Positions 3 to 27,881 of a stretch of 31,682 nt of DNA are shown here, piece after piece. The DNA lies in the IMG/VR virus record IMGVR_UViG_3300022209_000010, positions 1 to 31,682 of that record. One strand, written 5' to 3'. Positions within the stretch are counted from its first letter, which is position 1. Each line of letters begins with the position of its first letter. The notes beneath the pieces are model-generated. The model searched no databases. It was given only the letters and a program-made list of their open reading frames with translations, and was not told the origin of the DNA. The position numbers and the translations under genes were made by a program. Source of the stretch: a virus. Lineage: Duplodnaviria > Caudoviricetes.

Positions 3-266
3 GATCCAAACGTGCAATGCGAGGAAGGTCAATATTACCGTGACCGAGCACGGGATGCCATCGCCGCCTACGAAGCCGCGCGCCCCGACCATGTGATGGT
101 GCCCAAAAACCCAAGCCTAAATAGCAAGATGGCTGACGTTCTTGGCACAATTACAATGGTCCCTGGAAATGTCGTTCATATTTCGGGTGAGGATGTAATT
201 AAAACCGGAATGTGGCGGGCCATGATAACCGCACACGAACAGGAAAAGACCGATGAATTACCATGA
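3..266 (+). CDS. hypothetical phage protein, probably 5'-truncated by window edge
   Basis: Frame is open from base 3 (GAT CCA AAC GTG...); stop overlaps the next small ORF. Confidence 0.6.
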   Translation, partial: DPNVQCEEGQYYRDRARDAIAAYEAARPDHVMVPKNPSLNSKMADVLGTITMVPGNVVHISGEDVIKTGMWRAMITAHEQEKTDELP

Positions 267-390
267 ATATTTGACGGATTGGGAAATTGCTGCCGATATC
301 GAGGCGGAGGAAGCACGGGCGCGGCTGGTAAAGGAAGCCGACGAACAGAAGTATGCTAAACAACCCCATCAACCAGGAGTGAACCAATGA
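253..390 (+). CDS. small hypothetical protein, 45 aa (MNYHEYLTDWEIAADIEAEEARARLVKEADEQKYAKQPHQPGVNQ), not in ORF track
   Basis: AGGA upstream of ATG at 253; stop forms an ATGA overlap with the 387 gene; fills the gap between neighbours. Confidence 0.65.
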   Translation: MNYHEYLTDWEIAADIEAEEARARLVKEADEQKYAKQPHQPGVNQ

Positions 391-914
391 AATATCTCGC
401 TGCCGTTATCATTCTACTTTTCTCGACCGCCGCTTTCGCCGGGGAGCGCGAGCGCCCCAATGCACAATCCAGCGCCCGCGCCGCCGCTCTCGCCGTGGGC
501 GTCGGTATCGCAGGAGCCAAGGGAGGGACCGCCACGGCATCTGGAGATAGCGGCGACTCGCTTTACCTGTCTATCCCCGGAGCAGCTTCCGTGGGCGCGG
601 CAGGGGCTCACAAGTGCGGCCTATCGACGGGCTGGAGTATTCCGATCTTTACCTATAACTCGGTCGAAATGGAGCCGTTCTGTGCGCTCTCTACACAGGC
701 AGACTGGGTATGTCAGCGGGCCAGACTTAATCCCGCGCTGGCGGACCGCTGCAAAGAGTTGACCGATCAAGCAGCTAATTTCGGCAAAGAACCGGAAGAA
801 ATGGTGGCCGCTGGAAGGCCTCCCGTCAAGACTGCCTCCAACAAGGGCGGCAAAGACAAAGACGATCTGGCCTGCGTTCTGGGCTGGGCTATTGCTAAAC
901 ACCTAGACTGTTAG
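387..914 (+). CDS. secreted/periplasmic Cys-containing hypothetical protein
   Basis: AGGAG RBS; Sec signal peptide MKYLAAVIILLFSTAAFA; six Cys; Gly/Ala-rich N-terminal segment. Confidence 0.8.
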   Translation: MKYLAAVIILLFSTAAFAGERERPNAQSSARAAALAVGVGIAGAKGGTATASGDSGDSLYLSIPGAASVGAAGAHKCGLSTGWSIPIFTYNSVEMEPFCALSTQADWVCQRARLNPALADRCKELTDQAANFGKEPEEMVAAGRPPVKTASNKGGKDKDDLACVLGWAIAKHLDC

Positions 915-923
915 GAGAAGAAA

Positions 924-1118
924 ATGAAAAGTCTGATTTTCGTAATTTCGATGTTGTTTGCCGGCGTGGCCTATGCCGTCCCTGCGGACTGGGTTAAGGT
1001 CGGCAAGGGTATGTATACCTCTCCGGTCTGCTCCACCCCAGAATGTGCGGCGCGTGAAGCGAAAGATATCGACTTCTATGCGGGCGATCTGGATGGGGTT
1101 GACGACGACGACGAATAG
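924..1118 (+). CDS. small secreted protein with acidic tail
   Basis: AGGAG RBS; signal peptide MKSLIFVISMLFAGVAYA; CSTPEC; ends DDDDE. Confidence 0.8.
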   Translation: MKSLIFVISMLFAGVAYAVPADWVKVGKGMYTSPVCSTPECAAREAKDIDFYAGDLDGVDDDDE

Positions 1119-1160
1119 TGTATAACTAACCCATCAACGCATATTCCCTCAAACTCCAGG

Positions 1161-1195
1161 GGGCCGGTGGCAGAAATGTCCCCGGCCCTTTCTTT
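1161..1195 (+). terminator. intrinsic terminator between convergent transcription units
   Basis: GGGCCGG-T-GGCA-GAAA-TGTC-C-CCGGCCC followed by TTTCTTT; lies where plus and minus genes converge. Confidence 0.8.
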
Positions 1196-1409
1196 ATTTG
1201 CGGCAGATTTCCAGTTGGTCTGCGAGTCTGTCCAGACGAGACATCCATTCCCAAAAATACGTGTATCCTTCATAGGGAATCTTTTTCATTTCCTCCGCCA
1301 CGCGGACACCGGCCTTGGGCCACGGTGGGCAGCGGGACGCCTTAGAGGTCGTTGTCCCGCATCCGATCAATGATATCAGAACGATCCCTAGGACGGCGGC
1401 TCGCCACAT
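1194..1409 (-). CDS. o-spanin (Rz1-like outer-membrane lipoprotein)
   Basis: Start reassigned to MWRAAVLGIVLISLIGC (AGGAG RBS); lipobox LIG-C; Pro-rich CPPWP; overlaps the 3' end of the Rz-like gene in another frame. Confidence 0.8.
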   Translation of the reverse strand: MWRAAVLGIVLISLIGCGTTTSKASRCPPWPKAGVRVAEEMKKIPYEGYTYFWEWMSRLDRLADQLEICRK

Positions 1410-1578
1410 CCAATTGCTCCTGCTGAATCTCGGAGGTTTTCTCGGTCTGCTTTGCGCGCTCGTTTTTCTTGCCGAGCTTATAGGCAAAGATCACGCCCAT
1501 CCATTTAAGGGCGGCGCTGGCCAAGTCGGCGATAAACCCACCGATCTTGGCAAACGCACCTGTAATCGCCAACCACAT
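1342..1578 (-). CDS. i-spanin (Rz-like)
   Basis: Hydrophobic N-terminal half then charged helical C-terminus; downstream of endolysin/holin; overlaps lipoprotein gene. Confidence 0.7.
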   Translation of the reverse strand: MWLAITGAFAKIGGFIADLASAALKWMGVIFAYKLGKKNERAKQTEKTSEIQQEQLDVASRRPRDRSDIIDRMRDNDL

Positions 1579-1796
1579 CAGGCTTTAGGCACAATTTTGA
1601 GTTTGGACACGGCATCGCGCATACCGTAAACTGTCCATGCGCTTCCCGCAGCCATGATAAGATTATTAATCAGACCACTAACAGCCGTTTCAGCGCCGGT
1701 CCACCATTCCCAGCCAAACTGTGTGGCAAGATATCCAACCATCGTAATTACGACGCCTTGAATGGTCTTGCTTGCCATAATCCATTTATTACTCAT
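1578..1796 (-). CDS. putative holin
   Basis: 72 aa, two hydrophobic segments, SKT motif near N-terminus, basic C-terminus; adjacent to endolysin. Confidence 0.7.
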   Translation of the reverse strand: MSNKWIMASKTIQGVVITMVGYLATQFGWEWWTGAETAVSGLINNLIMAAGSAWTVYGMRDAVSKLKIVPKA

Positions 1797-1814
1797 AACT
1801 AATCCGATCTGTGG

Positions 1815-2243
1815 TTAAGGCATTCTACCCCAGCGATCTAACACAAGCACATCCTTGTATTCAAACACCGGGCATTCCTTGTTAGCCACCTCACAGTGGC
1901 CGTGGAACGATATTCTACCATAATAGGCTTCGTTAATCTCTCCACAGAGCGCCTGTAGGGCCGTCAGAGAGGCGTCCGAGAAGTCCCTTAGACCGTGGAC
2001 CATGATTGCTATGGTTCTAAGGTTATGGCCCTTCTGCGCTGCCGGAACGGCCTCCAGCGGCCTCCCCTCGAATACTCCACCCAGCTTATCAATCAGGAAA
2101 TGATACCCCACGTCATTCCAGCCGCGTGCCTTGTGCCAATTCCGTATCTCGTCAACGATATGTCGGCCAACAAGCGTCTCGTCGTCGCTGGCGCTGCAAT
2201 GCAGGAAGACACGCTGCACGGCCCTTTTGGGGCGCTCAAACAT
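1815..2243 (-). CDS. endolysin, N-acetylmuramoyl-L-alanine amidase (T7 lysozyme / Amidase_2 type)
   Basis: Zn-amidase motifs HCSAS, WHKARGWNDVGYHF, GR..GHN, FHGH and KECP. Confidence 0.93.
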   Translation of the reverse strand: MFERPKRAVQRVFLHCSASDDETLVGRHIVDEIRNWHKARGWNDVGYHFLIDKLGGVFEGRPLEAVPAAQKGHNLRTIAIMVHGLRDFSDASLTALQALCGEINEAYYGRISFHGHCEVANKECPVFEYKDVLVLDRWGRMP

Positions 2244-3084: not shown

Positions 3085-3390
3085 CTACCCTTCTAATTGA
3101 TGAACCACATCTAACGGCACATCTTCTGCCATTTCATCAGCCCGTTTAACAACGGCATTTCTAAAGCTCTCTATGGCCGCGACGTTTGCCTTCGCTTCCT
3201 GTGCCGCCGCCATGCTCATGTAAGGTGCCCAGAAGTGTGCACAGCCCCACTCCTGTACGTTCCGGCCCGTGTCCGGCGTTCTGAACCCGAAGAACATATA
3301 AAGGGCGCAGCCGTCTTTTTTCTTTCTAGTTTCCCGACAGGATTTAAAGTTGTTATAAGGACAACCACTCGTATCATCGAACAGCATCAT
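3085..3390 (-). CDS. Cys-containing phage protein downstream of tail-fibre gene (possible fibre chaperone)
   Basis: Pattern CP....C...C...P.TG....WGCA..W....AAIESFRN recalled from tail regions of environmental phages; ATGA coupling. Confidence 0.65.
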   Translation of the reverse strand: MMLFDDTSGCPYNNFKSCRETRKKKDGCALYMFFGFRTPDTGRNVQEWGCAHFWAPYMSMAAAQEAKANVAAIESFRNAVVKRADEMAEDVPLDVVHQLEG

Positions 3391-3932
3391 TTCTTCTCTG
3401 CAACAATGACATCAACAAACTTCAGGTCCATGTTGGGCAGGGTGTGGACATGCCCCGAACCGGACCCGGCGTTAGCAGTGCTTCCGCTGATCGTCGGCGT
3501 CCGTGAATCGGTGGATTGCACCGTACCTGTGTCTTCGGTTCCGCCTGCGGGGTCGCCAAAAATATCCACCCCCGTCGATATTTGCGACTGGGCTGGCAAC
3601 GCATTCTTCCAGCCTGTCGCTGTGTCGTCTGTGACGTAGAGAAAATGGAAATGGCTGGCATTCACCAGCGTCCCAGCGGCGTGCAAGTGTACCGGCATTT
3701 CGGTGGCTGTCAGAGTGTGGGCAGAGGCCGTCTTGGCGGCACCGAACAGAGTATTGAAGGCATCCGATCCCCCAACGCCCACGGCACCCGTGGTGGAGCG
3801 AAGACCGGCGTCTTCGTAGGTAGCGCCAGTTAATTGGGTCCACCCGAGTGGGGCAACGGACTGGTGGAACACCATTCTCGTTCCCCTGGGGAAACCTTTA
3901 GGCTCATTCAAACGTCTGGAAAAGTTACGCAT
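3387..3932 (-). CDS. short tail fibre / tail-collar-like protein
   Basis: FP.GTRMVFHQ..AP.GWT collar-like motif; HTLT..EMP.H.H and H.H metal-site motifs of trimeric fibres; C-terminal VDVIVAEK. Confidence 0.75.
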   Translation of the reverse strand: MRNFSRRLNEPKGFPRGTRMVFHQSVAPLGWTQLTGATYEDAGLRSTTGAVGVGGSDAFNTLFGAAKTASAHTLTATEMPVHLHAAGTLVNASHFHFLYVTDDTATGWKNALPAQSQISTGVDIFGDPAGGTEDTGTVQSTDSRTPTISGSTANAGSGSGHVHTLPNMDLKFVDVIVAEKK

Positions 3933-4294
3933 TATGTGGCCCTGTTAACCCAACCCGCCAAATGGAAAATGCCCGAGGCCGTGGCGAATGCCCGGATAAT
4001 AGATGTCGTCGCCGTGAAACTGACGCCGGGCACCAGATAATTAAGCCCGTCCATTTCAGCCAAATCCACAATAACATGATCCGCCGTCCCGGTGCCGCCT
4101 AGTTCAATCGTTAACCGCGAGGGACTCGTTGCCGTGCCTGCGTTCATCGCATACAGGTAGACTTCCTCAATGCCGTTGGTCGTGGTCGCCTGCACCGTAT
4201 GAACGGTCGTGCCCGGTGAGGTCAGGTTGTTAACCTCGACCATGCGGCCATTCGTGGACCCGCTAAGTATCTGCTTTGAATACGTTAAGGCCAT
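3932..4294 (-). CDS. putative small virion structural protein
   Basis: Thr/Gly-rich beta-type composition; TAATG coupling at both ends; tail module. Confidence 0.7.
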   Translation of the reverse strand: MALTYSKQILSGSTNGRMVEVNNLTSPGTTVHTVQATTTNGIEEVYLYAMNAGTATSPSRLTIELGGTGTADHVIVDLAEMDGLNYLVPGVSFTATTSIIRAFATASGIFHLAGWVNRAT

Positions 4295-4552
4295 TAGCTA
4301 AACATCCTGTTCATTATGACGATCCCCTCCTGTCCGGGGTCCGTGGTCAAAATCAACGCGCCGAAAGCAGCAGATACGTTCGAGTCCACGCCCTCGACGC
4401 CGGTCTTTAGCGGATCGCCCAACTTACTGACGTGCTTTGCCCATTCCACCTTGTTATCGGCGGTCGTGGTGCCGTCATCCGGTTTTCATTCACGGGGGCG
4501 GGGAGGTGTTGTAACCACTAATGGTTACAGACGAATAGGGGTTATCAGCCAT
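4294..4552 (-). pseudogene. interrupted ~81-aa tail-region gene (MADNPYSSVTISGYNTSPPP / DDGTTTADNKVEWAKHVSKLGDPLK...MNRMFS); recoded gene or pseudogene
   Basis: GGGAGG RBS and ATG at 4552; 20 codons, TGA at 4492-4490; second frame 4479-4294 ends in TAATG overlap with next gene; removing 13 nt restores one ORF. Confidence 0.75.
4510..4529. repeat. perfect 8-bp inverted repeat (hairpin) inside the interrupted gene
   Basis: TGTAACCA-CTAA-TGGTTACA. Confidence 0.7.
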
Positions 4553-4647
4553 TTAACCCCCCTCCCCGCACCCGCAATGTGCTCCTTCTAATAAGGTGTT
4601 TCATCTAATTGTGTCCTACATAGATGTGATATGGATTATCAGCCATT
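4535..4647 (-). repeat. imperfect direct repeat of the gene start, 94 bp apart
   Basis: AATGGCTGATAATCCATAT (4647-4629) vs AATGGCTGATAACCCCTAT (4553-4535), 17/19 identical, both reading MADNPY. Confidence 0.75.
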
Positions 4648-4682
4648 GCTCAACCTATCATATTGTCTTGTTAATGTTCCAA

Positions 4683-7600
4683 TCAGCGCGTGCGTTCTTT
4701 AACTCTCTTCTCCACCTGCTTCTTAAATAGATCAGGGTTTTCGGCAAATAGTCTTACGCGGGCCAATTGACGCCAACGCCGCACGGTTTCCTTAATGAAA
4801 TCCTCTTGCGCCGTTCTGCCGCCCGGCTGTGATCCCAGCGCGTCCCACCCCTCGCTGGTAACTGCCGCATCCAGGATGCGCTTGGCGGGCTTCCCTGCGG
4901 CCTCCACATAGCTCCAATATTGCTGTGGGGTTAGTTCTATGCCGCTGATTTTACGGGGCGGCATGGTAAGTTCCAGCTTTAACCGCACAACTTCGTTGGC
5001 TAGCTTATCCTTGGATGCCTTGTTGGTGTAGATGGGCGAGATAATGTCAGGCCCGAGCCCCCCGGTTAATGATATGGGCGAGCCCCATACATTCCGCCTT
5101 GCGGGCAAGTCTTCACTATACCCCGGTAGGCGGGATTTAATCTTATCCTGGAATGAGCGCACATCCCGAAGAATGGGGTCTTCCGTCCGCGCCAACTGTG
5201 CAACGCCGGTCGGGATCAACGTGCCGGATAGATTCTGTAGATACCTCTCCCCATACCTGTCTGGATCATGTAACGCTTGGATGGTTTCGGAAATTGATTT
5301 GAGATACGTCTTGGAAATCACATTCTTGGCAACAGCCATAGATATCATGCCCGCCAATTCGTCCTGCTCACCTTTCTCAAGGTGGCCGGAAATCTCCGCG
5401 TAATCCGCAGCCACCCCGAATAGAATGCCAAGCGGCTCAAGCCGAGCGTAGGAAAAATACTTGTCGCCTATTTTCAGGCTGTATGGTTGCCACCCGGTAT
5501 TGAATAAGGCCTGCCTAAGTTCCGGGTCTTTCGGCCCACCGCCGGTAATCTTACCCTCGGCAGCATAGCTTGCGACAACTGCGCTTACGCCCGTACCTAT
5601 GGTCATGCGGGCCAAGGCCAAATCCCTGGCCGCGCCGCCCTTTTTAATATCCGCACGGAAATTACGTGATAGGGGGGCCAGTACCGATCTTCCCGCCGCA
5701 AACTTGAGAATGTTAAGCGGTGTCCTCAGAAACGGCACCAGCAGACGGGCGGGCGCGGCAACCAATGGGTTGTCACTGTTCCTGATTCCCTGAATTTTCT
5801 GCCCGACATCCCCGAGTGGGTTGGTGAATGTCTGGTAGCGGGCGGTGTCCAGCGCGGCCAGTTTAATCTTTTCGGGCGGGTTGGTGATGACTTCATTAAT
5901 ATGTTTAGCCAGATCATTCCCGCGCAATCCCCTTTCCAGCCCGGTACGCATGGCGAGAGAGCGCAATTCCATCCTGAAGCCGATGGTCTTGAAGAATTCA
6001 TCTTCCGCCACCAGTGCTCGACCGGGCAGGCGGACAACCTTTCCGACAACTCCGGGGATGGCCTTGGGATTGGGTACATCCAGCTTGGAAAAGATATCCG
6101 AGGGCTCCTCGGTTATGAACGCCTTGGCTCCGGCCCGAAGGCCGTCCTTCATCCCCTCGACCATACCGAAGATACGGGCCTGCGTGTCGCGAAAGGTAAC
6201 GCCCTTGCCCCCCCTAACCCCGCGAATCCCCGCCGCAAGTAGATGTTCGGGAATTGTCCAGAGCGCGACTAGACTATTGGATAGTGTATTAACGGCATGA
6301 GTCTGTGGACCGGACAATAGCCCGTTAATCCAAACCTCGAATATCTTGTCCAGCGTGGTAGCCTTACGCACTCCGCGCGTAAACACTGCTACCTGTTCGG
6401 GAGTGTCAAGTCTGCTGGCAAGGTCCGCTATCTTGTCGATACGGTCCCGCCCGCCCTGAGACTCGATAATTTCCCGGAGAACGCGCTCCTTACTCTCCGA
6501 GGGAATCTGGAACTGACGTAACGCACGACCCGCCTCTGCCGTAAGACCGGCAACCTGTTCTTGAATAGCAACATGACGAGTTAGCGCTTGCTGAAACGAT
6601 ACAACTGCCTCATCCGACCCTCCCCGCGCCGCCTTGCTTAGATCAACCACTCGCTCCGCTGATTCAGCCAACAAGTTACGAGCAGCCAAGGCCTCTTCGG
6701 CATTAAATGCCTGCCCTTTGCGCCGCTTAAGGAGTGCTGATTCTGTCATCCCCAGATCGGAAGCCAGCAAGCGTGTCTGGTCGGTACTGATGACGCCTCG
6801 CCGTGCGGCCTCCATCTTCCCGGCCTGTTCCTGGGATGCTTCCAAGATAACCTGCTTGGCATCTTCCGGGGAGTTAATCCGGTCGAGGTTTATGTTCCCG
6901 GCACGGCGCGGCTCTTTATTTTCCCTAGCAAGCTTAGCGGTCCCAGCAGGGACTTCCTCCCTCCCCGATCCCACATCGGAAGTGCGTGGAGCCACATCTT
7001 CAATCGCCGCCTCGTCTGCCTGCGCCAGTACATGCTGACGAGCACCCGCCCTAAACCCGCGCATGAGAGCTACGAACGGTTGCAGGGCAACACCCAACCC
7101 AGCCCCCTCAAGGGCTAACTCAAACCGATTCTGCGCTTCCGAATCCTTGGGGTCTGCCGCAAGATATTCTGTTACGGGGTTTTGCAACTCAGGAAACTGT
7201 TGGATGAAATTACTGAATCGTGGTTGTTGTGGGTCGAAGGCCACTTGATCCGCGACAACGGCAGCGATTTCCGTCTCCAGAAATCTACCAACTGCCTTGG
7301 CTGCGGGAACGCCCATCTTCTCGGCAAATCGTGTCGCCGCTTCCGCTACCTGTCCCGTCCGACTCGCAGCTAGAACCGGGATAAACCCGGTCACAAACTG
7401 CATGACGCCACGGTTTAGAGCGCCGCCCAAATCTTTCGGCTTGTCAACCTGAGGAATTTTAATGTCGGACGTTTGCTCAGGGGGGATGTGTTGCCCTGTG
7501 CTGAAATCAAAACCACCAATGCCTGTTGCTTCAGAAAGCGCCCGCGCGGGTTTGTTAACTACTAAATCCACGATATTCTGCGCCGCTTCGAGTATTCCCC

Positions 7601-12406: not shown

Positions 12407-14647
12407 TCACAAATTCGCCATTGCGGTAAATACCGCTTCCGTATCATGGAAATCCCATGTCACCGTATTGTCGGTAATTCCCGTGCCCGTCCCCGTAGGT
12501 CCGCCCGACCCGGCGGAAGTCCCGGCGACGGTGCATTTGTAGATCCGGTTAGGAGTGTCGTTTTCCACCCAATCGCCGATTTCATACGCTGTTGTTGGTG
12601 CCCAAGCCGTAGCCATAGCCCCGGCAGTCGTGCAAATCCATCCAATCGGATTTCCGACAGATGGCGCAATATTATCGAAGGTGTCTCCCACGATATAGTC
12701 CCCCCATGTCGGAGCTTGATCCAAGAATGAACGAATGGGCCGCATCTGGTTCACGGTGGCACTCACAAACCCACCGCTTCCAAAATTGCGAGGAATCTCG
12801 CCACCCAAGCACATCTTTACATGGCTTATGCGGAACTCGACCGGAGCAGTAATCGTGTCGGAACCCGTTGGGCGAAAAATGCTTGTACCCGTCCCCTCCG
12901 TTATGGCCGTCTGCGCTGTTGAGTACCATGTATCTTTATCGACAGAAGTAACGATTGAACGGTAGCCCGCTTCATTATGCCATCCCGGAGTAGCCGTGCC
13001 ATCGAAGCGAAAAAGTTGATTTGCTCCTTCTTGGTGAATATATCGCCACCGAATCCCGAAACCTATTTGCGCGCCAAAACCATCCGCGTCATTCAAATAA
13101 CTGGATGGTAGCGAAAAGTTAAATGTCGGATAAGGAAAGTTGGTTCGCGCACGAACAGCAAATACGCGACCCTCAAATTCATCGTTTACAAGACCTATCT
13201 CGTAAATAACGGTGCCGTTGATTTCGTCAATATAGAATTGCGCGAAATCACAAGCCAACATGTTTGTCACTTTAGGAGTACCCACCAATCCGCAAAGCCA
13301 CCCGTCTTTGCTTGCCGATGCCTCGACCAGCGGCATTTCAGTATCGCGCAAATGAATGGCTTGCATAATAGAACCGATACCATCCAGCCTAACGCGCCCA
13401 ACATGCTGATCGGTTACAACAATTTCGCCAGCAGCAAAGTTCACATGATTCTTTATCTCGACCGACCACGAACTATTTACGGTCCCGGAGGTGTTGTATT
13501 CGATAAGATCGCTTGAAAGAATGCTTGTGGAGTCCTGATTGCCCCGGACACCATCCAGCGTCACCTTGCAAACATTGCAAACAGACAGCTTCATGCCGTT
13601 ATCGAAAAGGCCCCATGCCCCCCTTACTATCGTGTGGCGAGTGCCGTTAGAATTGATGCCGTCATCGTGATAAATATTATAGGTTGGGGATGTCCCGCTC
13701 TGTTCGTAATGCAGACCGTTTATATAATTCCAGCCTTCCCCATCAAATCTGATAAGTGAGTTCTTCGCCACGGAAATCCCGCCGCCCTCGATAACTATAT
13801 TATCAATGATAATTTCGCGAAATGCTTTGAAATCAAACAATTCTGTCCAAGGCGACGTGTCATTCCAGCCGCCGTTAAAAACATGAATGTTCTGAAAATA
13901 CATTCCGGTGCCGATGACACCATCACCAGTGCCTGCATTGGTATAGCCTAGAAACCCACCAATATCGTCTAGAAGCAAAACACCCAGCCACGATGAAGAC
14001 GATCCGAAATAGATGGTGTGAACTCCGGTTATATTTGTGCAGTGATAGCAAAGACCGGAAAAGCCACGAAATCCTATATTCATACTCACCCATTGATGAG
14101 CATCATTACCACCAATGCCGTTGCCAAACTGAAAGCAATGCTGGTTGGCTGTGCCCGGATTTTTAGACCGAAACCCAATATCTCTCCAAACGCAATCATA
14201 GGCATTGTTAATATGAGCTGTTGAATCTCCCGGATTTGTAAACAGCCACAGCACATCACCAGCCGTAGTGCTGTCCAGCATGATTGTAGAGCCGCCATTA
14301 GCAATCGTTGGGGACATTGCATGACCTTCACCAAACACGCTGATAGTGCCCTCAGATGTCAGCCCAACCCCGGCCACAGGAACAACGCGGTAAACTCCCC
14401 TCGGAAAATGAAGGATGCGCGTACCGCCATCTGCCTCGGCAACGTCGATTGCCGCCTGAATAGCTGCCCTATCGTCCGTGGTGCTATCGCCCACAGCGCC
14501 ATAATCCTTGACATTGATAAAGCTATTTCCACGCGCTCGGCTCAGCGATGCCCTGTAATCCCCGTCACCCGAAAGCGGGATAGGAATATCCGCACCCGAA
14601 ATATTCTTGGTCGCGGGAAGTGCTGGTAAATTAGGAATTGTCGTCAT
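12407..14647 (-). CDS. tailspike / receptor-binding protein with pectate-lyase-like beta-helix
   Basis: INVKDYGAVGDSTTDDRAAIQAAID...LHFPRGVY motif; Asn/Gly/Ile-rich repeats; C-terminal W...TAY..GD.V module. Confidence 0.85.
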   Translation of the reverse strand: MTTIPNLPALPATKNISGADIPIPLSGDGDYRASLSRARGNSFINVKDYGAVGDSTTDDRAAIQAAIDVAEADGGTRILHFPRGVYRVVPVAGVGLTSEGTISVFGEGHAMSPTIANGGSTIMLDSTTAGDVLWLFTNPGDSTAHINNAYDCVWRDIGFRSKNPGTANQHCFQFGNGIGGNDAHQWVSMNIGFRGFSGLCYHCTNITGVHTIYFGSSSSWLGVLLLDDIGGFLGYTNAGTGDGVIGTGMYFQNIHVFNGGWNDTSPWTELFDFKAFREIIIDNIVIEGGGISVAKNSLIRFDGEGWNYINGLHYEQSGTSPTYNIYHDDGINSNGTRHTIVRGAWGLFDNGMKLSVCNVCKVTLDGVRGNQDSTSILSSDLIEYNTSGTVNSSWSVEIKNHVNFAAGEIVVTDQHVGRVRLDGIGSIMQAIHLRDTEMPLVEASASKDGWLCGLVGTPKVTNMLACDFAQFYIDEINGTVIYEIGLVNDEFEGRVFAVRARTNFPYPTFNFSLPSSYLNDADGFGAQIGFGIRWRYIHQEGANQLFRFDGTATPGWHNEAGYRSIVTSVDKDTWYSTAQTAITEGTGTSIFRPTGSDTITAPVEFRISHVKMCLGGEIPRNFGSGGFVSATVNQMRPIRSFLDQAPTWGDYIVGDTFDNIAPSVGNPIGWICTTAGAMATAWAPTTAYEIGDWVENDTPNRIYKCTVAGTSAGSGGPTGTGTGITDNTVTWDFHDTEAVFTAMANL

Positions 14648-14664: not shown

Positions 14665-17600
14665 TTATTTCCTACGCTTCCAAGTGCCCCGACGACGACG
14701 CCAGCGCCCCAGCTTATCGCCCAGGCCCAAACCGCCATGTCCGGTGAAAGCCTGCACAAACTGCTGATATAGGCTCTGTATCGTCGCCACAGCCGTACTC
14801 GTAGCGGTAAGAACCACATCGGTAAGCGGAACAACAAGTTCACGAACAAGCGTTGCCACCCCTGTAGCGGTTGCCGCCAGTGTTTTAAATAACAAGGCAA
14901 CTCTTGCCAGAGTCGCGGACGCTGTAGATGTTGCGACTAAAGCTATGCTCGTAAAAGCCCTGCTGAGAAGCAATGTCGCAGCGCCCGTCGCCGTCACTGC
15001 GAGAGTGCGGAATGCCGTAACTAACCGTTGAATGGTGGCTACACCTGTGGCCGTAGCTGCAAGGGTAATCTCCGTCAATGCGGAGATAAGTAGCTCGATA
15101 AGAGTGGCTATGCCCGTGGCTGTAGCCGAGAACAGCCGCACGTAAGTGGCGCGACGGAATAACGTGGCTATACCCGTGCTAACCGCGATGAAGACTTTAC
15201 GGAAAAGAGCCCGCCGGGCAAGGGTGGCAACGCCCGTGGCTGTCGCCGCAAGAGTGCGGAGATATACAGGGATGCCCTGAACAAGAGTAGCGATGCCCGT
15301 CGCCGCTGCCGCGAGCGTCTTGAAAAAACCTCTCAACAAGAATGCTCTGGACGGGCCTATCTGTTCATAAGCCCCGCCATTGATAAGCTCCCAGTCGCCC
15401 TTCTGGAAATTGTCTTCCCCGCCAATAAGCCCGTAATGCCCTGAACCCACTTGTGTTGTCAGGAAAACCGCGTGTGGGCTGTTCTTCTCTGTCGCGATAA
15501 CAGTCGCAATGGCGGAGAAAACACGGGCGCTGAACGGGAAGGCATTCGTTATTGTCACCACGCCTGTTGCGACTGCTGATACAATGCGAGGCGCAATCCG
15601 TTGACGCGCCAGCGTTGCCACACCAGTTGCGGTAGCCGCAAGCGTGACGAGCGTAGCCGCCAAATCCTCGGCAATAAGCGTTACTAACCCTGTCGCCGCT
15701 GCCGGTAGCGTAACCGTACTGAAATTCTTCAGGGCAGTAGCTACGCCCGTGGCCGTTGCCGATACGGTGCGGAAGAACAAACCCAGCTTGTTTAATGTGG
15801 CAACGGCAGCAGCAGTCGCAGCAAGGGTTATCTGCGTAGCGCCCAGTTGATCTGCGATCATCGTGGCGGTAGCGGTAACGGTAGCCGCAAAAGCGCGGAA
15901 AGCCCGCCAACGACGCGCCAAGGTAGCCGTTACTGCGGTTGTCGCGGAAAGAACCACTTGCGTGAATGCTTGGCTAAAAGCCAACACGGCAGCGCCCGTG
16001 GCCGTCGTGGATAACGTCCGAAGGGCAAGCCATCTCTTGTTTACGGTCGCCGTCACTGTCGCAGTAGCGGACATAACACGACGAAACAGCCCTTGTATTA
16101 ACAGTGTAGCGGAGCCCGTGGCAGTCACGGCCAGCGTTCGTCCTGCACGCAAACGCCTTTCAAGAACAGCAACCACTGTGGCCGTAGCCGCCAAGGTGAT
16201 TTCCGTTAATGCCGAGATTAATTGCTCTATTAATGTCGCGATGCCTGTGGCCGCAGCAGAAATTATGCGAGAAAACGCCGCCCGCTTGATTATCGTGGCA
16301 ACGCCCGTCGAAACAGCAGACAAAGCGCGGGAAACAGAGGCCAGCCGCAACAAGGTCGCTGTGCCTGTTGCTGTCGCCCCCAGAACGCGATTAACAAATT
16401 TCTGAAACGCTAGAACGGCGGCACCGATTGCCGTAGCGGCAAACCGTATATCTTGCCGAATGTTTAATGTCGTGACAATTCTAGAGCCACCGGCCGCCGT
16501 GGCTGGTCCTGTCGTGTCGGAGGTGCCGACACCTTCCGCCCAGTCATTAGCCGTGCCGTCATTTGTATGTGCGTTGGCTTCGTCTTTATTAAAAACGTAA
16601 GCAGCAGCGCCGCCCGAATCTATGTCGCCATCGTCCGGCAAAACAACGGCCTTGCCATCAGATGTCCGAACCAACTCAATAGTAGATGAATTGCTCCAGT
16701 CAATCTTGCGCTCCCATAAAGCAAGCTGGGATAACCCACCATCAAGATTGCTTGCACCAGTTGTCCAGTTTTGCCCTATGGCGCTGCCGACATCCTGATT
16801 GCGGAAAATACCATCAAGGACAAAAGTCGTTGCAACTGTGCTGTCCTGCACCCCGTCTATATAATTATCATAATCGTCTGTCGCAGCAGTATTTACCCAC
16901 CCGCAAACATGGTGCCATACGTCTTCTGTCGGTACGGCATTGTTTGCAGATATCCACCGATACACAACTCCACCAGCAGCATTCTGGAATAAAAAATCAA
17001 CCCTGTCAGTTGTTTGCAAAACCATCGCCTTGCGGCTTGAGCTTAAAATCGTTGGGGTGCCTGTTGTGTCTCGCCTGATCCAGAATGACCAACTTAGTTC
17101 TTTGCCGTCAGTAAGCCCGGCATTGCTCCCAGAATCATCAAAGCCACTACCGGCAGCACCATCGAAATCCACAGCGGGAGCGGTGCCCTCCGATGCAGGC
17201 TTCAGCGTCCTGAAAAACAATGCGGCGCGGTTCAGCGTTGCCGTAACAGCAGCCGTCGCCGCCAAGGTAAGCTCCGTCAGGGTCGCCCCGAGGTCTTCTA
17301 TCAGCGTGGCAACACCAGTCGCCGCCGCGGAAAGAGTACGATTAACGAGTGCCGCCGCCGTATTAAGGGTCGCCGCTCCGGTTGCTGTCGCCGCATTGGT
17401 GATGCTGGAAAAAGCTTGCGAGAAAGCCAGCGTTGCCGCCCCGGTCGCCGTCGCCGCCAATGTTCTGAATAAAGAGGCCCGTCTCGCCAAAGTCGCCGCT
17501 ACCGTAGCCGTTGCCGCGAGAGTTTCCTCGGTAGGGCCACCAGCCGCAGAAGCAATCGCAAACTGAATACCGGCAAGGCCGTCAGTCACCGCTGACGTGA

Positions 17601-18213
17601 CAGTACACGTTCCGGTCGCGCCGCTCGTTACATCCTTGGTGGCCCACATGCCGGACGCATCGGAAGCGCCACTACCCGACTGTTGGCTGTCTCCGAGCGT
17701 CCAGCCCGTGCCGCTTACAGTAAAGGCATGGCCGTCCCCACCGTCGAACGCCCCCACCGTAAAAGCAAGGCGATCATTGGCGGCAACGGTAAACCCGGTT
17801 ACGGCGTGGCTGGTGCCAACTGCGTTATATTCCGTACCGGGGCCGTTGGCATCCATGGGAGTCGTGTCGTCGTTCCCCTGGATATGGATATACCAGCCGT
17901 ATAGTTCGTTGGTTGTGTCACAGGTAACGCCCTGCGTCGCCCCCTCGGTGCCGTCCGCAATGCGCCAGTATACGGCCATCGCGACATCGGTGGTATTGTC
18001 GCCTATCTGGAATTCGCGGGTCCAGCCGGTAACGGCATTCCACTCACCGGCAAGGGGGTTTGCGTCATCACTGCCGACAATAATCAACAACAGATCGCCG
18101 TTGTCGATGGTGGCGTCCGTCGGCTTGGTCAGCGTGATAAGGGACTCGACGTTGCCACCACTGTCGTTGACGGTCCAGGCGGCACCAGAGGCGGCAATGA
18201 AGGGAACAGCCAT
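14665..18213 (-). CDS. 1182-aa Ala/Thr-rich repeat fibre protein with LamG/ConA-like insert
   Basis: About 30 repeats of ~20-23 aa, consensus (F)RTL(A/S)ATATG(V/A)ATL; SWSFWIR...WHHVCG...YIDG LamG-like motifs at ~16480-17200; basic C-terminal tail. Confidence 0.8.
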   Translation of the reverse strand: MAVPFIAASGAAWTVNDSGGNVESLITLTKPTDATIDNGDLLLIIVGSDDANPLAGEWNAVTGWTREFQIGDNTTDVAMAVYWRIADGTEGATQGVTCDTTNELYGWYIHIQGNDDTTPMDANGPGTEYNAVGTSHAVTGFTVAANDRLAFTVGAFDGGDGHAFTVSGTGWTLGDSQQSGSGASDASGMWATKDVTSGATGTCTVTSAVTDGLAGIQFAIASAAGGPTEETLAATATVAATLARRASLFRTLAATATGAATLAFSQAFSSITNAATATGAATLNTAAALVNRTLSAAATGVATLIEDLGATLTELTLAATAAVTATLNRAALFFRTLKPASEGTAPAVDFDGAAGSGFDDSGSNAGLTDGKELSWSFWIRRDTTGTPTILSSSRKAMVLQTTDRVDFLFQNAAGGVVYRWISANNAVPTEDVWHHVCGWVNTAATDDYDNYIDGVQDSTVATTFVLDGIFRNQDVGSAIGQNWTTGASNLDGGLSQLALWERKIDWSNSSTIELVRTSDGKAVVLPDDGDIDSGGAAAYVFNKDEANAHTNDGTANDWAEGVGTSDTTGPATAAGGSRIVTTLNIRQDIRFAATAIGAAVLAFQKFVNRVLGATATGTATLLRLASVSRALSAVSTGVATIIKRAAFSRIISAAATGIATLIEQLISALTEITLAATATVVAVLERRLRAGRTLAVTATGSATLLIQGLFRRVMSATATVTATVNKRWLALRTLSTTATGAAVLAFSQAFTQVVLSATTAVTATLARRWRAFRAFAATVTATATMIADQLGATQITLAATAAAVATLNKLGLFFRTVSATATGVATALKNFSTVTLPAAATGLVTLIAEDLAATLVTLAATATGVATLARQRIAPRIVSAVATGVVTITNAFPFSARVFSAIATVIATEKNSPHAVFLTTQVGSGHYGLIGGEDNFQKGDWELINGGAYEQIGPSRAFLLRGFFKTLAAAATGIATLVQGIPVYLRTLAATATGVATLARRALFRKVFIAVSTGIATLFRRATYVRLFSATATGIATLIELLISALTEITLAATATGVATIQRLVTAFRTLAVTATGAATLLLSRAFTSIALVATSTASATLARVALLFKTLAATATGVATLVRELVVPLTDVVLTATSTAVATIQSLYQQFVQAFTGHGGLGLGDKLGRWRRRRGTWKRRK

Positions 18214-24383: not shown

Positions 24384-25822
24384 GCCCTGCCCCCCACGAT
24401 TGGCCGCGCCGGTTTTCTGGTCGCCACCGCGCCATGCGATTTCGTCGCGGCGTACCGCCGCATCACGAACGCATACCGGGTTGCGCTCATGATATCATCA
24501 TACGAATCCACCACCTTGCCGTCGTCCCTGTGATAAAGCCGCTTTTCCTCAAACCAGTCACTCAGGGTGGAAAATACCTTGAACTTGCCCACCCGCATCC
24601 ATTCGTACATCTCGATCAGCCCGGCCTCCCGGCTGTTCTGACGTTCGTCCTTATAATGCGCGTGTTCCTTCAACATGGTGCAGCCGTGGTCCCGGAACTG
24701 ATCCTTCAGAGCCACCCCGGTTCCCTTGTCTCTCTGCAACCCGTCATGCGGCCACGATACGGGTATCCATGCGCCGTGCTTCTTCAGCGCCGCCGCGTGG
24801 TAAACCGATGTTTCGTTGGACCTTTTATAACAGTCGTAAACATAAAAGGTGTCTTCGTCGCGGTCCCAGGCGCAAAACGCCGTCGCGTGCGGATGGTCGA
24901 TGCCGAAATCAATCCCGTTAATCCGTGCGAAATGATCGGGTATCTGGAAGGGCGGGCAGGAGATGTCTTCATCCTTGACCGGGAAGATCGCGCCCGACCC
25001 CAGAAGGGGCGTTCCTGACGCACGTGTGTCCCGTTCGTGAGACGGGTAGGTGGCCATTAATTCGTTGCGGGCCTTCTCGTCCAGATGCGGCGCATCGTCC
25101 CAGCCGACGTTTTTGATCCATATGCTCGCGCCGATCTCGGGATTCAGGAAGTGGCGCACGACTTCAGACGGGCCTTTTAAGGGCGTAAAGGTCAACAGAA
25201 CGCAGCCCCGCTTGTCGAGAATACGGGTCAGCCCTTCCGTGTAAATGTCCATCGTCGGTTCTTCATCGAACCACACGAAATGACACGCGCGGCCCTGCCA
25301 TTCCTTTCTTTGCTGCTCATACGTCTTCAGGGTGATGGAGGATGCCCCGCCTGTCTTGTGCTGGACGCGGATCGTATCCACAACGTCCGAGACGCCGGCC
25401 TGACGCTTCTTCCAGTCGATGATGTATTCCTTGGGTATCCAGCCGGTGCCCTCTTCCCCGACCACCCCTAATAGAGACTCTTGAATGATGTCTCGCGAGG
25501 CCGTCCACGATTCAGATCCACACCAGATCGTTGTCGGTTCCTCGAACCTCCGGCCTTCCCACCAACTCGGATACAGTCCCGTGGCGTGGCAAGCGACTTC
25601 CGCAGCCGCAGTTTGCGTCTTGCCCACCCTGTTCGCGGCCATCAGCAGGCGCTCGGTCTTCTCCCCGCCCGCGTTGTGAACCTCGATCTGCCACAAATAC
25701 GGCCCGATATTGTCCGGGCCGAACGCCTTCGCATGGTCGTAGGGCTGCTTGTACTGGAAGAAAAGCATTTGGTTTGCTTTTTTGGCTTCCAGGTTAGCCA
25801 AGACGGTTTGGATTTCGCTCAT
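24371..25822 (-). CDS. terL: terminase large subunit
   Basis: Walker A AANRVGKT; Walker B VWFDEEP; coupling motif TFTP; nuclease GIDFG...HA and DDIMSATRYA. Confidence 0.95.
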   Translation of the reverse strand: MSEIQTVLANLEAKKANQMLFFQYKQPYDHAKAFGPDNIGPYLWQIEVHNAGGEKTERLLMAANRVGKTQTAAAEVACHATGLYPSWWEGRRFEEPTTIWCGSESWTASRDIIQESLLGVVGEEGTGWIPKEYIIDWKKRQAGVSDVVDTIRVQHKTGGASSITLKTYEQQRKEWQGRACHFVWFDEEPTMDIYTEGLTRILDKRGCVLLTFTPLKGPSEVVRHFLNPEIGASIWIKNVGWDDAPHLDEKARNELMATYPSHERDTRASGTPLLGSGAIFPVKDEDISCPPFQIPDHFARINGIDFGIDHPHATAFCAWDRDEDTFYVYDCYKRSNETSVYHAAALKKHGAWIPVSWPHDGLQRDKGTGVALKDQFRDHGCTMLKEHAHYKDERQNSREAGLIEMYEWMRVGKFKVFSTLSDWFEEKRLYHRDDGKVVDSYDDIMSATRYAFVMRRYAATKSHGAVATRKPARPIVGGRAWRT

Positions 25823-26799
25823 GCGGCCTTGATCTTGTCCAGGTTGGAATACCAGTCCATGTATTCCGTCATGCCGCGCTCGATGTCGTATTGAGGTTTA
25901 TATCCCACTTTATCGCGGATATGGCGGCAGGACATTGTACCACGTTCCGGCTTTTCCGGGTCTTTCTCCGCATACAGAACCTTCGTCGGGAACCGTTTCA
26001 TGACGATATCCGCGAGTTTATTGAGGCTTGTCGCGTTCTCTCCCGTGAGATTGAACGTCTCGAACATACCCGGTTCCCATTCCTGGTTTTCAACCGCGCA
26101 CCGGAGTCCCATCACCAGATCGGCGATGTAGGTGAAGTCGTGTTCTTCGGTTCCATCGCCGTGGATCGTAATCGGCTCGCCCCGCATGGCTTTTTCAATA
26201 AATACCTGCGTCACCCTCCCCGATACGCACCTTGGACCGTAGAGCGCCTGCGGGCGGATAATCGTCAAGGGCAGGCCATACGTCTGATTGTAGGCAATCG
26301 CCATTCTCTCCCCGGCGAGCTTGAGATTACCGTAGATGCCTTCAGGGGTGAGTTCTTCCTTCTCGTTGATGACGGGCTGGGAGAAATCCCCGTAAACCGT
26401 CGAGGACGAGAAATACATCAACCCACATCCTAATGCGCGGGCAACGTCGAGGCTGTTCTCCAGCGTCCTAAGGGAATGATCGAAGGTGGTGTGCGGGTCT
26501 TTGTTTGCCACGGTGATATGGGCAATCGCCGCCGTATGGATAATCAGATCGGGCTGAAAGTGCGCGAGGGTGCGGGACAGCAGATCGTAATCCCGTGCAT
26601 CCGCGCGGATCAGGGGAATCCCGGCAATATCGAGCAGCGCCAGCCGTTCCTCGGCAAAGGCCTTGTGGGCGTCGTTTTCGAGAACCATCAGGTTATTCAC
26701 CATCAGGCTGTCAACGGCGGCAACGGTATGGTTTCTGTTCTTCAGGTGAAGGGCGAGATGGTGGCCGATGAAGCCGCAGCCAACGAGGGCGATTTTCAT
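25819..26799 (-). CDS. NAD-dependent nucleotide-sugar epimerase/dehydratase (extended SDR)
   Basis: GCGFIG, SSSTVYG, YGNLK (YxxxK), YGP, DFTYI.D. Confidence 0.93.
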   Translation of the reverse strand: MKIALVGCGFIGHHLALHLKNRNHTVAAVDSLMVNNLMVLENDAHKAFAEERLALLDIAGIPLIRADARDYDLLSRTLAHFQPDLIIHTAAIAHITVANKDPHTTFDHSLRTLENSLDVARALGCGLMYFSSSTVYGDFSQPVINEKEELTPEGIYGNLKLAGERMAIAYNQTYGLPLTIIRPQALYGPRCVSGRVTQVFIEKAMRGEPITIHGDGTEEHDFTYIADLVMGLRCAVENQEWEPGMFETFNLTGENATSLNKLADIVMKRFPTKVLYAEKDPEKPERGTMSCRHIRDKVGYKPQYDIERGMTEYMDWYSNLDKIKAA

Positions 26800-27881
26800 A
26801 GAACTTCCTTAAAAGTTTGCGCCATATACTTGATGGCCTTTTCAGTGAGATGCGGTCCGACCGAGAAACATAGATTCTGGCTGGATATCTCTTCCGCGTT
26901 CGGGAACTGCCCGATCTGGTGGTGTTGCGCGTAAACCTGTGTATGCGGCACCGGCTGCGCGTAATAAACGCTGGTTTCCACATTTTTCCTCTTCATTTCC
27001 GCCTTTACACGGTCCCTGTCAGGGCCGACGAAGACCGAAAGAGCATAATGCCCGCTGTTCATCTGCTCGAACGCAGAAAGTTCCTTCGACAGCAGATTGT
27101 AGTTGTTTTTTCTCGCATTCATGATGCTGGGCAGCTTTTTCATCTGTGAAACGCCCAGCGCACCCTGCATTTCCGTCATCCGGTAGTTCAATCCTAGCAT
27201 AATCCAGTCCCGCGCGGCCACAATCAGCCCGGTCGGGCTTTCATGCCGTTGCCCGAAATGCCGTCTGGCGCGGATATTCTCGGCTATCGCGGGGTGGCGG
27301 GTCAGCAGCATACCCCCTTCCCCGGTGGTGATGTGTTTTGCAGGGTAAAACGAGAACGTCCCGGCATGACCCCACAGGCCCACATGGGTGCCCTCTATGA
27401 AGCTCCCGAGAGCCAGGGCGCAGTCTTCCACCACGAACAGGTCGTGTTGCCGCGATATCGCCATGATTTCCGGCATATCGCAGGGCTTTCCAAGGTAATG
27501 AACCACAAAAATAGCCCCGGTGCGGGGCGTTATGGCGTTTTTGATGGCTTCCGGCGTTATATTGCCTGTTTCCCGGTCGCAATCGACAAAAACGGGGATT
27601 CCCCCGACCAGGGAGACGGCCATTGCGGTAGCCGGATGGGTTAAAGCGGGAACGATCACCTCGAAGCCGGGTTTTAACCCGCAGAGTGCGGCCAGATGTA
27701 GAGCACCCATGCAAGAAGTGGTAGCCAAAGCCATTCCACCGCCGCAAAAATCGCTAAAAGATTGCTCGAAGGCGCGGACATTTCCCGCATTAGTGAGTTG
27801 AGAATTTCGTAAGGAACACGAAACAGATAAAATATCATCATCGTCTATTTGCGGCACCGCGAACCGCACTCTCATACCCAT
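26796..27881 (-). CDS. DegT/DnrJ/EryC1/StrS PLP-dependent sugar aminotransferase (PseC/LegC-like)
   Basis: VEDCA, FSFYPAKHITTGEGG (PLP lysine), GLNYRMTE. Confidence 0.95.
   Translation of the reverse strand: MGMRVRFAVPQIDDDDILSVSCSLRNSQLTNAGNVRAFEQSFSDFCGGGMALATTSCMGALHLAALCGLKPGFEVIVPALTHPATAMAVSLVGGIPVFVDCDRETGNITPEAIKNAITPRTGAIFVVHYLGKPCDMPEIMAISRQHDLFVVEDCALALGSFIEGTHVGLWGHAGTFSFYPAKHITTGEGGMLLTRHPAIAENIRARRHFGQRHESPTGLIVAARDWIMLGLNYRMTEMQGALGVSQMKKLPSIMNARKNNYNLLSKELSAFEQMNSGHYALSVFVGPDRDRVKAEMKRKNVETSVYYAQPVPHTQVYAQHHQIGQFPNAEEISSQNLCFSVGPHLTEKAIKYMAQTFKEVL

Follow-up and report, generated by a model that had tools for sequence, protein, structure and literature searches.

A 13-Nucleotide Gap in a Phage Tail-Fibre Anchor Gene as a Candidate for Translational Bypassing

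The window analysed here, a linear virus record of 31,682 nucleotides (nt; IMG/VR record IMGVR_UViG_3300022209_000010, Caudoviricetes), is podovirus-like and has all of its genes on the minus strand. One of them, an 81-codon gene, is split into two reading frames by 13 nt, and its full-length protein may be made by ribosomes that bypass these 13 nt from one CCG codon to an identical one; from the sequence, we put the probability of this reading at about 0.45. Comparison with relatives identifies the split gene as the conserved N-terminal anchor domain of the tail fibre in a podovirus-like group, and in that comparison the family sequence is obtained only by a skip of exactly 13 nt.

The split gene and its family

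Read on the minus strand, the junction is TCC CCG CCC CCG / TGA ATG AAA A / CCG GAT GAC GGC, with AAC ACC just 5' of TCC (Table 1). The ten non-coding bases between the slashes and the landing codon together make up the 13-nt coding gap. The first frame has a Shine-Dalgarno sequence, GGAGG (4565-4561), 8 nt 5' of its ATG, whereas the second has no start codon before GTG 4449, whose ribosome-binding site is poor; the TAA that ends the second frame overlaps the ATG of the next gene as TAATG. An initial annotation of this DNA had described these frames and their coordinates, the CCG pair, the TAATG coupling, the ribosome-binding site, and an 8-bp hairpin upstream of the first CCG, and all were recovered on the minus strand. 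Its argument that a +1 frameshift at the proline codons cannot join the frames was likewise borne out, since the second frame contains a TGA at 4488-4486; more generally, no single frameshift, +1 or -1, can connect the two halves because stops lie in the way, and the third frame closes after 28 codons. Past the first UGA, the mRNA reads AUG AAA ACC GGA UGA, with four consecutive A's in the gap sequence. Reading TGA as a sense codon was rejected: the first frame would then meet a TAA 13 codons later with the halves still unjoined, and TGA ends 7 of the 18 long genes. No tRNA or suppressor genes were found in the window or in the remainder of a sibling contig, G001, which is described below.

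A random frame-breaking insert would be expected to yield both an instant stop and the same codon before the resume point about 2-7 times in 10,000 or, if the insertion mechanism duplicates 3 bp, about 1.6 times in 100. The codon and stop pattern by itself is therefore not decisive in a scan of many windows. It appears to gain weight from the protein comparison, in which the halves join without a residue gained or lost into the most conserved motif of the family.

The 62 residues of the second frame match five proteins of 81-82 amino acids (aa) that start MA(D/E/A)NPY..(V/I)(T/S)(I/V)SGYN(T/A)SPPPDDG. When these are aligned, the first frame corresponds to residues 1-20 and the second to the rest, the two overlapping by one proline; all five of the stand-alone homologues carry SPPPDDG in one frame. 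Scans with the homologue alignment gave 21 viral and 45 metagenome loci, three of which are the window or its sibling, and SGYNxSPPxDDG lies in one frame at each of the 63 others (63/63). Excising exactly 13 nt, CCG to CCG, gives back this family reading. The bypass proposed in the initial annotation thus fared unevenly: its expectation of contiguous homologues was borne out and the 13 nt are real (see below), but its suggestion that relatives might share a similar gap was not, as none of the 63 other related loci (0/63) has any gap there. In an alignment of 32 relatives, no insertion or deletion falls within SGYNxSPPxDDG, which is the best-conserved stretch, and N16 and P20 are invariant. The alignments indicate that Pro-Pro-Pro is an ancestral motif of the family and did not evolve for the hop, a point missing from the initial annotation.

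The gene next after that of the internal virion protein carries a longer motif, Y..[ST][IV]SGYNxSPPxDDG...N...W..H..K.GDP.KT, at its N-terminus. In most relatives, this domain of ~60 aa heads a fibre protein of 200-750 aa that starts -8 to +21 nt from the stop of the upstream long gene. One relative (locus L063) has it joined to a tail-collar-fibre domain (phrog_523, 1e-33), and this fusion protein also matches phrog_8763, a family matched too by the 181-aa gene of the window; the fibre of the window's subgroup would therefore be split over three proteins, namely an anchor of 81 aa, a protein of 120 aa, and a distal protein of 181 aa. Sequence searches of Pfam, PHROGs, and the Protein Data Bank (PDB) with the anchor domain found no family that covers the domain itself. 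An AlphaFold model of the homologue P0001 (pLDDT 76) has an extended arm at residues 1-27 and helices at 34-63 and 69-80, and a Foldseek comparison of the model with the PDB gave no match. Taken together, the conserved motif and the extended arm of the model would place the gap in the middle of a conserved docking arm.

The inserted bases, the upstream rearrangement, and the RNA fold

The inserted bases are genuine and are not due to assembly error. Contigs from five runs (X1, X2, X3, X5, and X6) bridge positions 4480-4495 with 0 differences; X1 and X2, which are possibly the source runs of the window itself, give contigs with a depth of 13.6 each, and the others are a contig of depth 4 from X3 (4100-4578) and contigs from X5 (4433-4586) and X6 (4281-4537). 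Contigs of a further run, X7, end at 4465, short of the gap, and run X9 gave no contig that aligned. The runs are sediment metagenomes of one year with five study codes, and may therefore represent one campaign. The evidence consists of assembled contigs, which hide rare variants. An artefact of assembly or sequencing might be suspected in that the window is a metagenome-assembled contig and contigs rather than raw reads were compared, but five runs under five study codes agree without a difference, and two separately assembled contigs carry the insert; we consider this explanation extremely improbable, and the assembly error that the initial annotation had offered as an alternative therefore falls.

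The second of these contigs, the sibling G001 (43,946 nt; loci L069 and L072-L074), has only 4 differences from the window in 29,862 aligned nt, and it also contains the insert. Positions 1-34 of the window equal G001 43913-43946, and the window from 1821 onward corresponds to G001 from 1 onward; with these end overlaps, the two close into a genome of ~45.7 kb, of which window positions 35-1820 are the sole part that G001 does not have. One of only two internal differences between them is at position 4466 (ACG to AAG, Thr to Lys), within the split gene, 14 nt past the landing codon and at a site that is variable in the family. The contigs of runs X4 and X7 also break at 4465/4466, as they would at a polymorphic site.

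Run X4 yielded window-type pieces and, in addition, a contig of 198 nt in which 4479 is linked to 4642 and 58 other letters take the place of 162 of the window. As ATGGC (4646-4642) plus 58 letters amounts to 63 nt, or 21 codons before GAT, this variant is, from its lengths, apparently an uninterrupted gene starting at the upstream ATG 4646. At the same ATG, the window has a second and diverged copy of the gene start, in which both mismatches fall at third codon positions (score 28, against a shuffle maximum of 25). ATG 4646 is thus likely to be the ancestral gene start, and the 13-codon frame that now follows it the remnant of that start. By this comparison, the window lineage differs from its nearest relative twice, in the 13-nt gap and in a 94-nt upstream piece with two small frames and a ribosome-binding site that is new and very strong; this upstream rearrangement, with its duplicated gene start, was not in the initial annotation. 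The small frames are chained stop to start: TAG-ATG at 4607-4602, AUGGCUGA at 4552-4545, and UGA-AUG at 4492-4487.

A long-range helix, also missed by the initial annotation, is predicted to link the Shine-Dalgarno region with the take-off codon and its stop. It has 18 pairs with one mismatch and one bulge, and extends by 4 bp and a G.U pair into the inserted bases. Bases 4575-4440 fold with -62.8 kcal/mol, whereas shuffled sequences average -44.6 (z = -4.54), and 0 of 200 shuffles were as stable; the helix is kept in both the minimum-free-energy and the centroid structures of a 291-nt fold (z = -2.96). When the GYN...DDG codons are paired as a duplex with the 60 nt that precede the start, the window lineage gives -36.0 kcal/mol, the strongest when ranked against the 59 other loci with enough upstream sequence, the next-strongest being -33.1 and -26.8. 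Against shuffled upstream sequence, the window has z = -4.1, whereas five relatives, the next-strongest included, range from +0.4 to -1.9; the helix was accordingly rejected as a family feature, and the pairing is specific to the lineage. The 8-bp hairpin, at -9.1 kcal/mol, is the strongest among the equivalent segments of 52 distinct relatives (mean -2.7, standard deviation 2.2; next -7.7). We also computed, for 4143 positions of the strand, the folding energy that mRNA behind the ribosome would gain on a 13-nt slide. At the take-off codon, hiding 12 nt in the exit path gives a gain of -15.7 kcal/mol, within the top 0.14% of positions, and hiding 14 nt gives one of -11.0 kcal/mol, within the top 2.5%; this figure quantifies the predicted helix and is not independent evidence. 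Rfam searches over 3800-5200 (E up to 1) gave no family.

A templated origin of the inserted bases was looked for and rejected. They are not a repeat of neighbouring sequence, and no second copy of the insert 16-mer was found at up to 3 mismatches. Two possible sources were rejected: the reverse complement of the flank of the 5' helix arm does not yield the inserted bases, and a likeness to the TAG-ATG-AAA junction at 4607 is not significant, as 31% of 2000 shuffles score as well. The 12-mer ACCGGATGACGG, consisting of the last gap base, the landing CCG, and GATGACGG, recurs at 27173-27184 (-) in an aminotransferase-like gene; similarity beyond it is weak, with no convincing extension, and the recurrence is therefore probably due to chance.

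Table 1. Positions of the split anchor gene, its candidate recoding elements, and adjoining features.
Feature	Positions	Strand	Description
First reading frame	4490..4552	-	20 codons, MADNPYSSVTISGYNTSPPP, then UGA; ATG 4552-4550; aligns to residues 1-20/21 of the 81-82 aa homologues
Proposed take-off codon CCG	4493..4495	-	Third Pro of SPPP; TGA 4492-4490 directly next
Non-coding bases (10), UGAAUGAAAA	4483..4492	-	8/10 A/U; UGA stop first; not in 63 other related loci
Proposed landing codon CCG	4480..4482	-	First CCN triplet in any register past take-off
Resumed (second) frame	4294..4479	-	61 codons DDGTTTADNK...MFS (4479-4297), then TAA 4296-4294; 82% identity to P0001 over 62 aa
Perfect hairpin	4510..4529	-	8 bp, 4-nt loop; 14 nt between hairpin and first CCG
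Predicted long-range helix, 5' arm CAUUGCGGGUGCGGGGAGG	4561..4579	-	Contains Shine-Dalgarno GGAGG 4565-4561
Predicted long-range helix, 3' arm CCUCCCCGCCCCCGUGAAUG	4487..4506	-	Thr-Ser-Pro-Pro-Pro codons, take-off CCG, UGA, and three further gap bases
Upstream small frame	4545..4604	-	19 codons, ATG 4604; UGA 3-5 nt past ATG start of first frame (AUGGCUGA)
Second, diverged copy of gene start	4605..4647	-	19 nt, 17/19 identical; ATG 4646, 13 codons, TAG 4607-4605
Next gene	3932..4294	-	120 aa; phrog_30535, function unknown; translationally coupled
Tail-fibre/tail-collar-like distal protein	3387..3932	-	181 aa; phrog_8763, phrog_8469

The bypass reading, its precedents, and its rivals

In the proposed mechanism, Pro-Pro-Pro followed by UGA would pause the ribosome with peptidyl-tRNA(Pro) on CCG 4495-4493 and UGA in the A site. 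UGA is described as the weakest terminator and termination after proline as especially slow (PMC3082878), and a ribosome pause as a common prerequisite of sliding (PMC11194080). The peptidyl-tRNA(Pro) would then release its CCG, the mRNA would move by 13 nt, and the anticodon would re-pair with CCG 4482-4480, so that GAU is decoded next and the joined product contains the predicted junction peptide ...GYNTSPPPDDGTTTADNK, which has three prolines rather than four. Once folded again at the mRNA exit, the 8-bp hairpin would prevent backward movement, and the free G-rich arm of the long-range helix could pair with the C-rich arm as it emerges from the ribosome, drawing the mRNA 13 nt forward. For gene 60 of phage T4, refolding of the mRNA behind the ribosome is reported to drive and secure bypassing, and spacing of ribosomes to favour it (both in bioRxiv 10.1101/2024.12.09.627546 and PMC11194080). 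Here, the masked Shine-Dalgarno site and the overlapping upstream 19-codon frame may space ribosomes out such that the helix can re-form, and that upstream frame could also open the helix and hand ribosomes on. The yield of bypassing may be low, perhaps matched to the few fibre copies per virion. We consider it rather unlikely that the whole would be a self-contained natural bypass cassette of ~100 nt and of new design, in which re-pairing of the Shine-Dalgarno/G-rich arm with the proline-codon arm pulls the mRNA and which came in whole by recombination, like the gene 60 cassette.

As in bypassing generally, the codons are matched, the A-site codon is slow, and a 13-nt skip rather than a frameshift restores colinearity. 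The closest known analogue would be the large terminase gene of the Streptomyces phage Hau3, which the window resembles in form. Two frame-breaking 10-nt inserts with a slow codon at the head are described there, with bypassing proposed; such blocks occur in 3 of 100 terminases, the flanks being contiguous in relatives without an insert, and mass spectrometry in E. coli detected the junction peptide once UUA had been changed to UAA (PMC10732093). In both cases, a very short non-coding block, of 7-10 nt in the Hau3 type and 10 nt in the window, interrupts a structural or packaging gene of a phage that is intact apart from it, with flanks that are contiguous in relatives; a codon that is slow to decode stands at the 5' end of the block (UGA in the window); the insert is rare among relatives (3/100 terminases, and one lineage of ~60 here); and strong structure is predicted around the site, a 5' stem-loop included. 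The two differ in the gene, a tail-fibre anchor in the window, in the host, in the length of the skip (13 versus 10 nt), and in the trigger, which here is UGA after Pro-Pro-Pro and in Hau3 a rare UUA sense codon tied to the bldA tRNA supply of the host. No UUA occurs at the take-off site of the window, and no link to a host developmental tRNA is implied. Unlike in Hau3, the take-off region of the window is predicted to pair with the Shine-Dalgarno region 54 nt upstream, and the bypass is a prediction from sequence.

T4 gene 60 offers further likenesses: matched take-off and landing codons at non-overlapping sites, a stop directly after take-off, an A/U-rich gap, an mRNA that could pair on leaving the ribosome, and a joined product that is colinear with uninterrupted homologues. 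UGA is reported to follow take-off in three gene 60 homologues (bioRxiv 10.1101/2022.08.31.505936). A stem-loop lies 5' of take-off in both, at 9 nt in T4 and 14 nt in the window, which is an analogy of position and not homology; with no Rfam match, the window has no sequence homology to gene 60. The gap of the window is far shorter (13 versus 50 nt), and it has no A-site stem-loop, no GAG 6 nt before landing, and no nascent-peptide signal of the KKYK type. In contrast to gene 60 and the MobA cassette, the gene concerned is a fibre anchor rather than a topoisomerase, no mobA homing endonuclease stands beside the gap, and the neighbours are structural genes.

Two simpler processes are also comparable. 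Stop hopping at a low level from one codon to a matching one, with no dedicated signals (Weiss et al. 1987 and subsequent work, as cited in PMC10732093 and bioRxiv 10.1101/2024.12.09.627546), shares with the window the short distance, the matched codons, and the stop in the A site, and is the minimum that the sequence of the window would support even if nothing has evolved for the purpose; it was seen in laboratory constructs at low yields, whereas the window holds a natural gene whose product needs the hop, together with an unusual predicted helix. The +1 shifty stops at CCC_UGA that are described for Listeria phage tail genes and antizyme (PMC3082878) likewise have a P-site proline codon with UGA in the A site, and a phage tail-related gene. 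A +1 frameshift of this type was rejected for the window because the P-site CCG cannot re-pair at +1 (CGU) and the +1 frame meets UGA two codons on. No report of bypassing in a tail-fibre gene was found in the literature searched, and the recoding papers there that use the term "coding gap" mention no tail fibres.

Several observations weigh against bypassing. The gap is present in one clonal lineage only (0/63 other loci; the carriers have 4 differences in 29,862 nt), and neither relatives nor independent lineages share it, whereas a gap maintained by selection would be expected in them. No RNA run was among those listed as containing this stretch. There are no Shine-Dalgarno-like bases before the landing codon, the nascent chain has only 20 residues and no known anchoring signal, and within the 10-nt gap no local hairpin can form in the A site, the only structure predicted downstream being a 3-bp CCG/CGG stem. 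In T4 gene 60, such bases and an A-site hairpin are both important (bioRxiv 10.1101/2024.12.09.627546). The rank of the exit-side gain shifts with the assumed exit length (0.14% versus 2.5%), and the helix, if it forms, masks the ribosome-binding site and would lower output. Structures 5' of take-off are described as poorly conserved even in true gene 60 homologues (bioRxiv 10.1101/2022.08.31.505936); predicted folds are weak evidence. With ~17 of 20 bases in agreement, the 5' arm resembles a reverse-complemented 3' arm, the result to be expected of an inverted duplication; with the helix and the gap beside the 94-nt rearrangement, both may therefore be scars of one complex mutation. The window also encodes a separate 746-aa tail-spike-like protein, and the split fibre may therefore be dispensable.

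An ordinary frame-breaking insert, perhaps one rearrangement with the 94-nt piece, may thus have inactivated the anchor, the loss being tolerated or even profitable and spreading in a clonal bloom; we hold this to be quite possible, if tentative. The repeated CCG would then be a micro-duplication left by the insertion and the instant stop a matter of chance; insertion with a 3-bp duplication, which the initial annotation listed as an alternative, remains fully alive. The single clonal lineage, the second tail-spike-like protein, the inverted-duplication-like match of the arms, and the weakness of 5' structures as evidence even for real gene 60 homologues all favour inactivation, as do the apparently uninterrupted variant in run X4 and the neighbouring rearrangement, which marks the site as mutationally active; moreover, the event is too recent for the second frame or the partner genes to be expected to have decayed. 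Some side tail-fibre genes of phages are known to carry loss-of-function frameshifts, e.g., lambda stf. However, inactivation needs several coincidences: the stop comes instantly, the matched codon is at the same time the first cognate triplet, the most conserved motif is repaired exactly, the 5' hairpin is the strongest of 52, and the predicted helix, unique against 59 other loci, reaches the inserted bases. A broken allele assembled in five runs is also hard to reach for a costly mutation, and in most relatives this is the fibre gene directly after the internal virion protein gene.

The remaining explanations are much less probable. The Pro-Pro-Pro-UGA pause or the upstream small frames could act as a leader peptide or attenuator that remodels the mRNA and tunes the downstream fibre genes, the anchor not being made whole; the chain of small frames with its stop-start contacts and the Shine-Dalgarno site masked by a helix that translation would open fit such a role, but the second frame has no start before GTG 4449 with its poor ribosome-binding site, no relative has such a leader, and the 120-aa gene is coupled by TAATG to the end of the second frame and therefore needs ribosomes in that frame. 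We give just as little credit to other routes between the halves, i.e., termination at UGA followed by re-initiation at AUG and a slip of +1 on AAAA, a pair of frameshifts in succession, or two peptides that assemble. AUG AAA ACC GGA UGA does stand right after the UGA, and its four A's would let tRNA(Lys) re-pair at +1 into the second frame, but this demands two rare events in series, and the product would be missing residues 1-20, which form the conserved docking arm. Shifting by +1 on the proline codons meets the UGA at 4488-4486, a -1 shift requires a second shift at a non-slippery site, and no homopolymer is long enough for transcriptional slippage. The bypass interpretation is thus plausible and specific but unproven, and a simple gene-killing insertion is almost as likely.

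Genome context and implications

PHROG matches identified genes for a large terminase, a portal-type protein, a major head protein, and an amidase, as well as a 1037-aa internal virion protein whose gene ends at 4683. In the early region are genes for a replication initiator, a RusA resolvase, and a regulator, and none of the 24 frames tested proved to be an integrase. The 746-aa protein (12407-14647, -) resembles tail spikes or fibres at its N-terminus (residues 29-136; several PHROGs), and its C-terminus matches a head-decoration family. It is adjoined by a 1182-aa protein (14665-18213, -) that belongs to no family, and the two are likely to form a second receptor-binding system. Just after the terminase gene, 25819-27881 (-) encodes nucleotide-sugar epimerase-like (phrog_540, 1.4e-48) and aminotransferase-like (phrog_3139, 8e-56) proteins, possibly sugar-modification genes of the phage. 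A search of GenBank phages with 3900-4750 gave no match, and a promoter and terminator scan found nothing beyond shuffle level. Genome bins of Paracoccaceae, Rhodanobacteraceae, Flavobacteriales, Chlamydiales, Phycisphaerales, and others also contain contigs with the anchor domain (loci L075-L081), probably phage contigs swept into these bins. For the host, the seven matches in genome bins are uninformative, being spread over unrelated phyla.

To our knowledge, natural translational bypassing is known in very few systems, these being T4 gene 60 and its homologues, the byps of yeast mitochondria, and the candidate in the Hau3 terminase. If the bypass reading is true, the window would add a rare new case, a variant on a known principle, and its 13-nt gap, 20-codon first frame, and single long-range helix would make it the smallest natural test system for forward sliding driven by pairing; pairing behind the ribosome as the driver of sliding is at present argued from gene 60 mutants. 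It would also mean that some "frameshifted pseudogenes" of metagenomic phages are working genes and that such short inserts are under-counted. If the insert only kills the gene, a phage in clonal bloom would have lost one receptor-binding fibre, which is an ordinary event.

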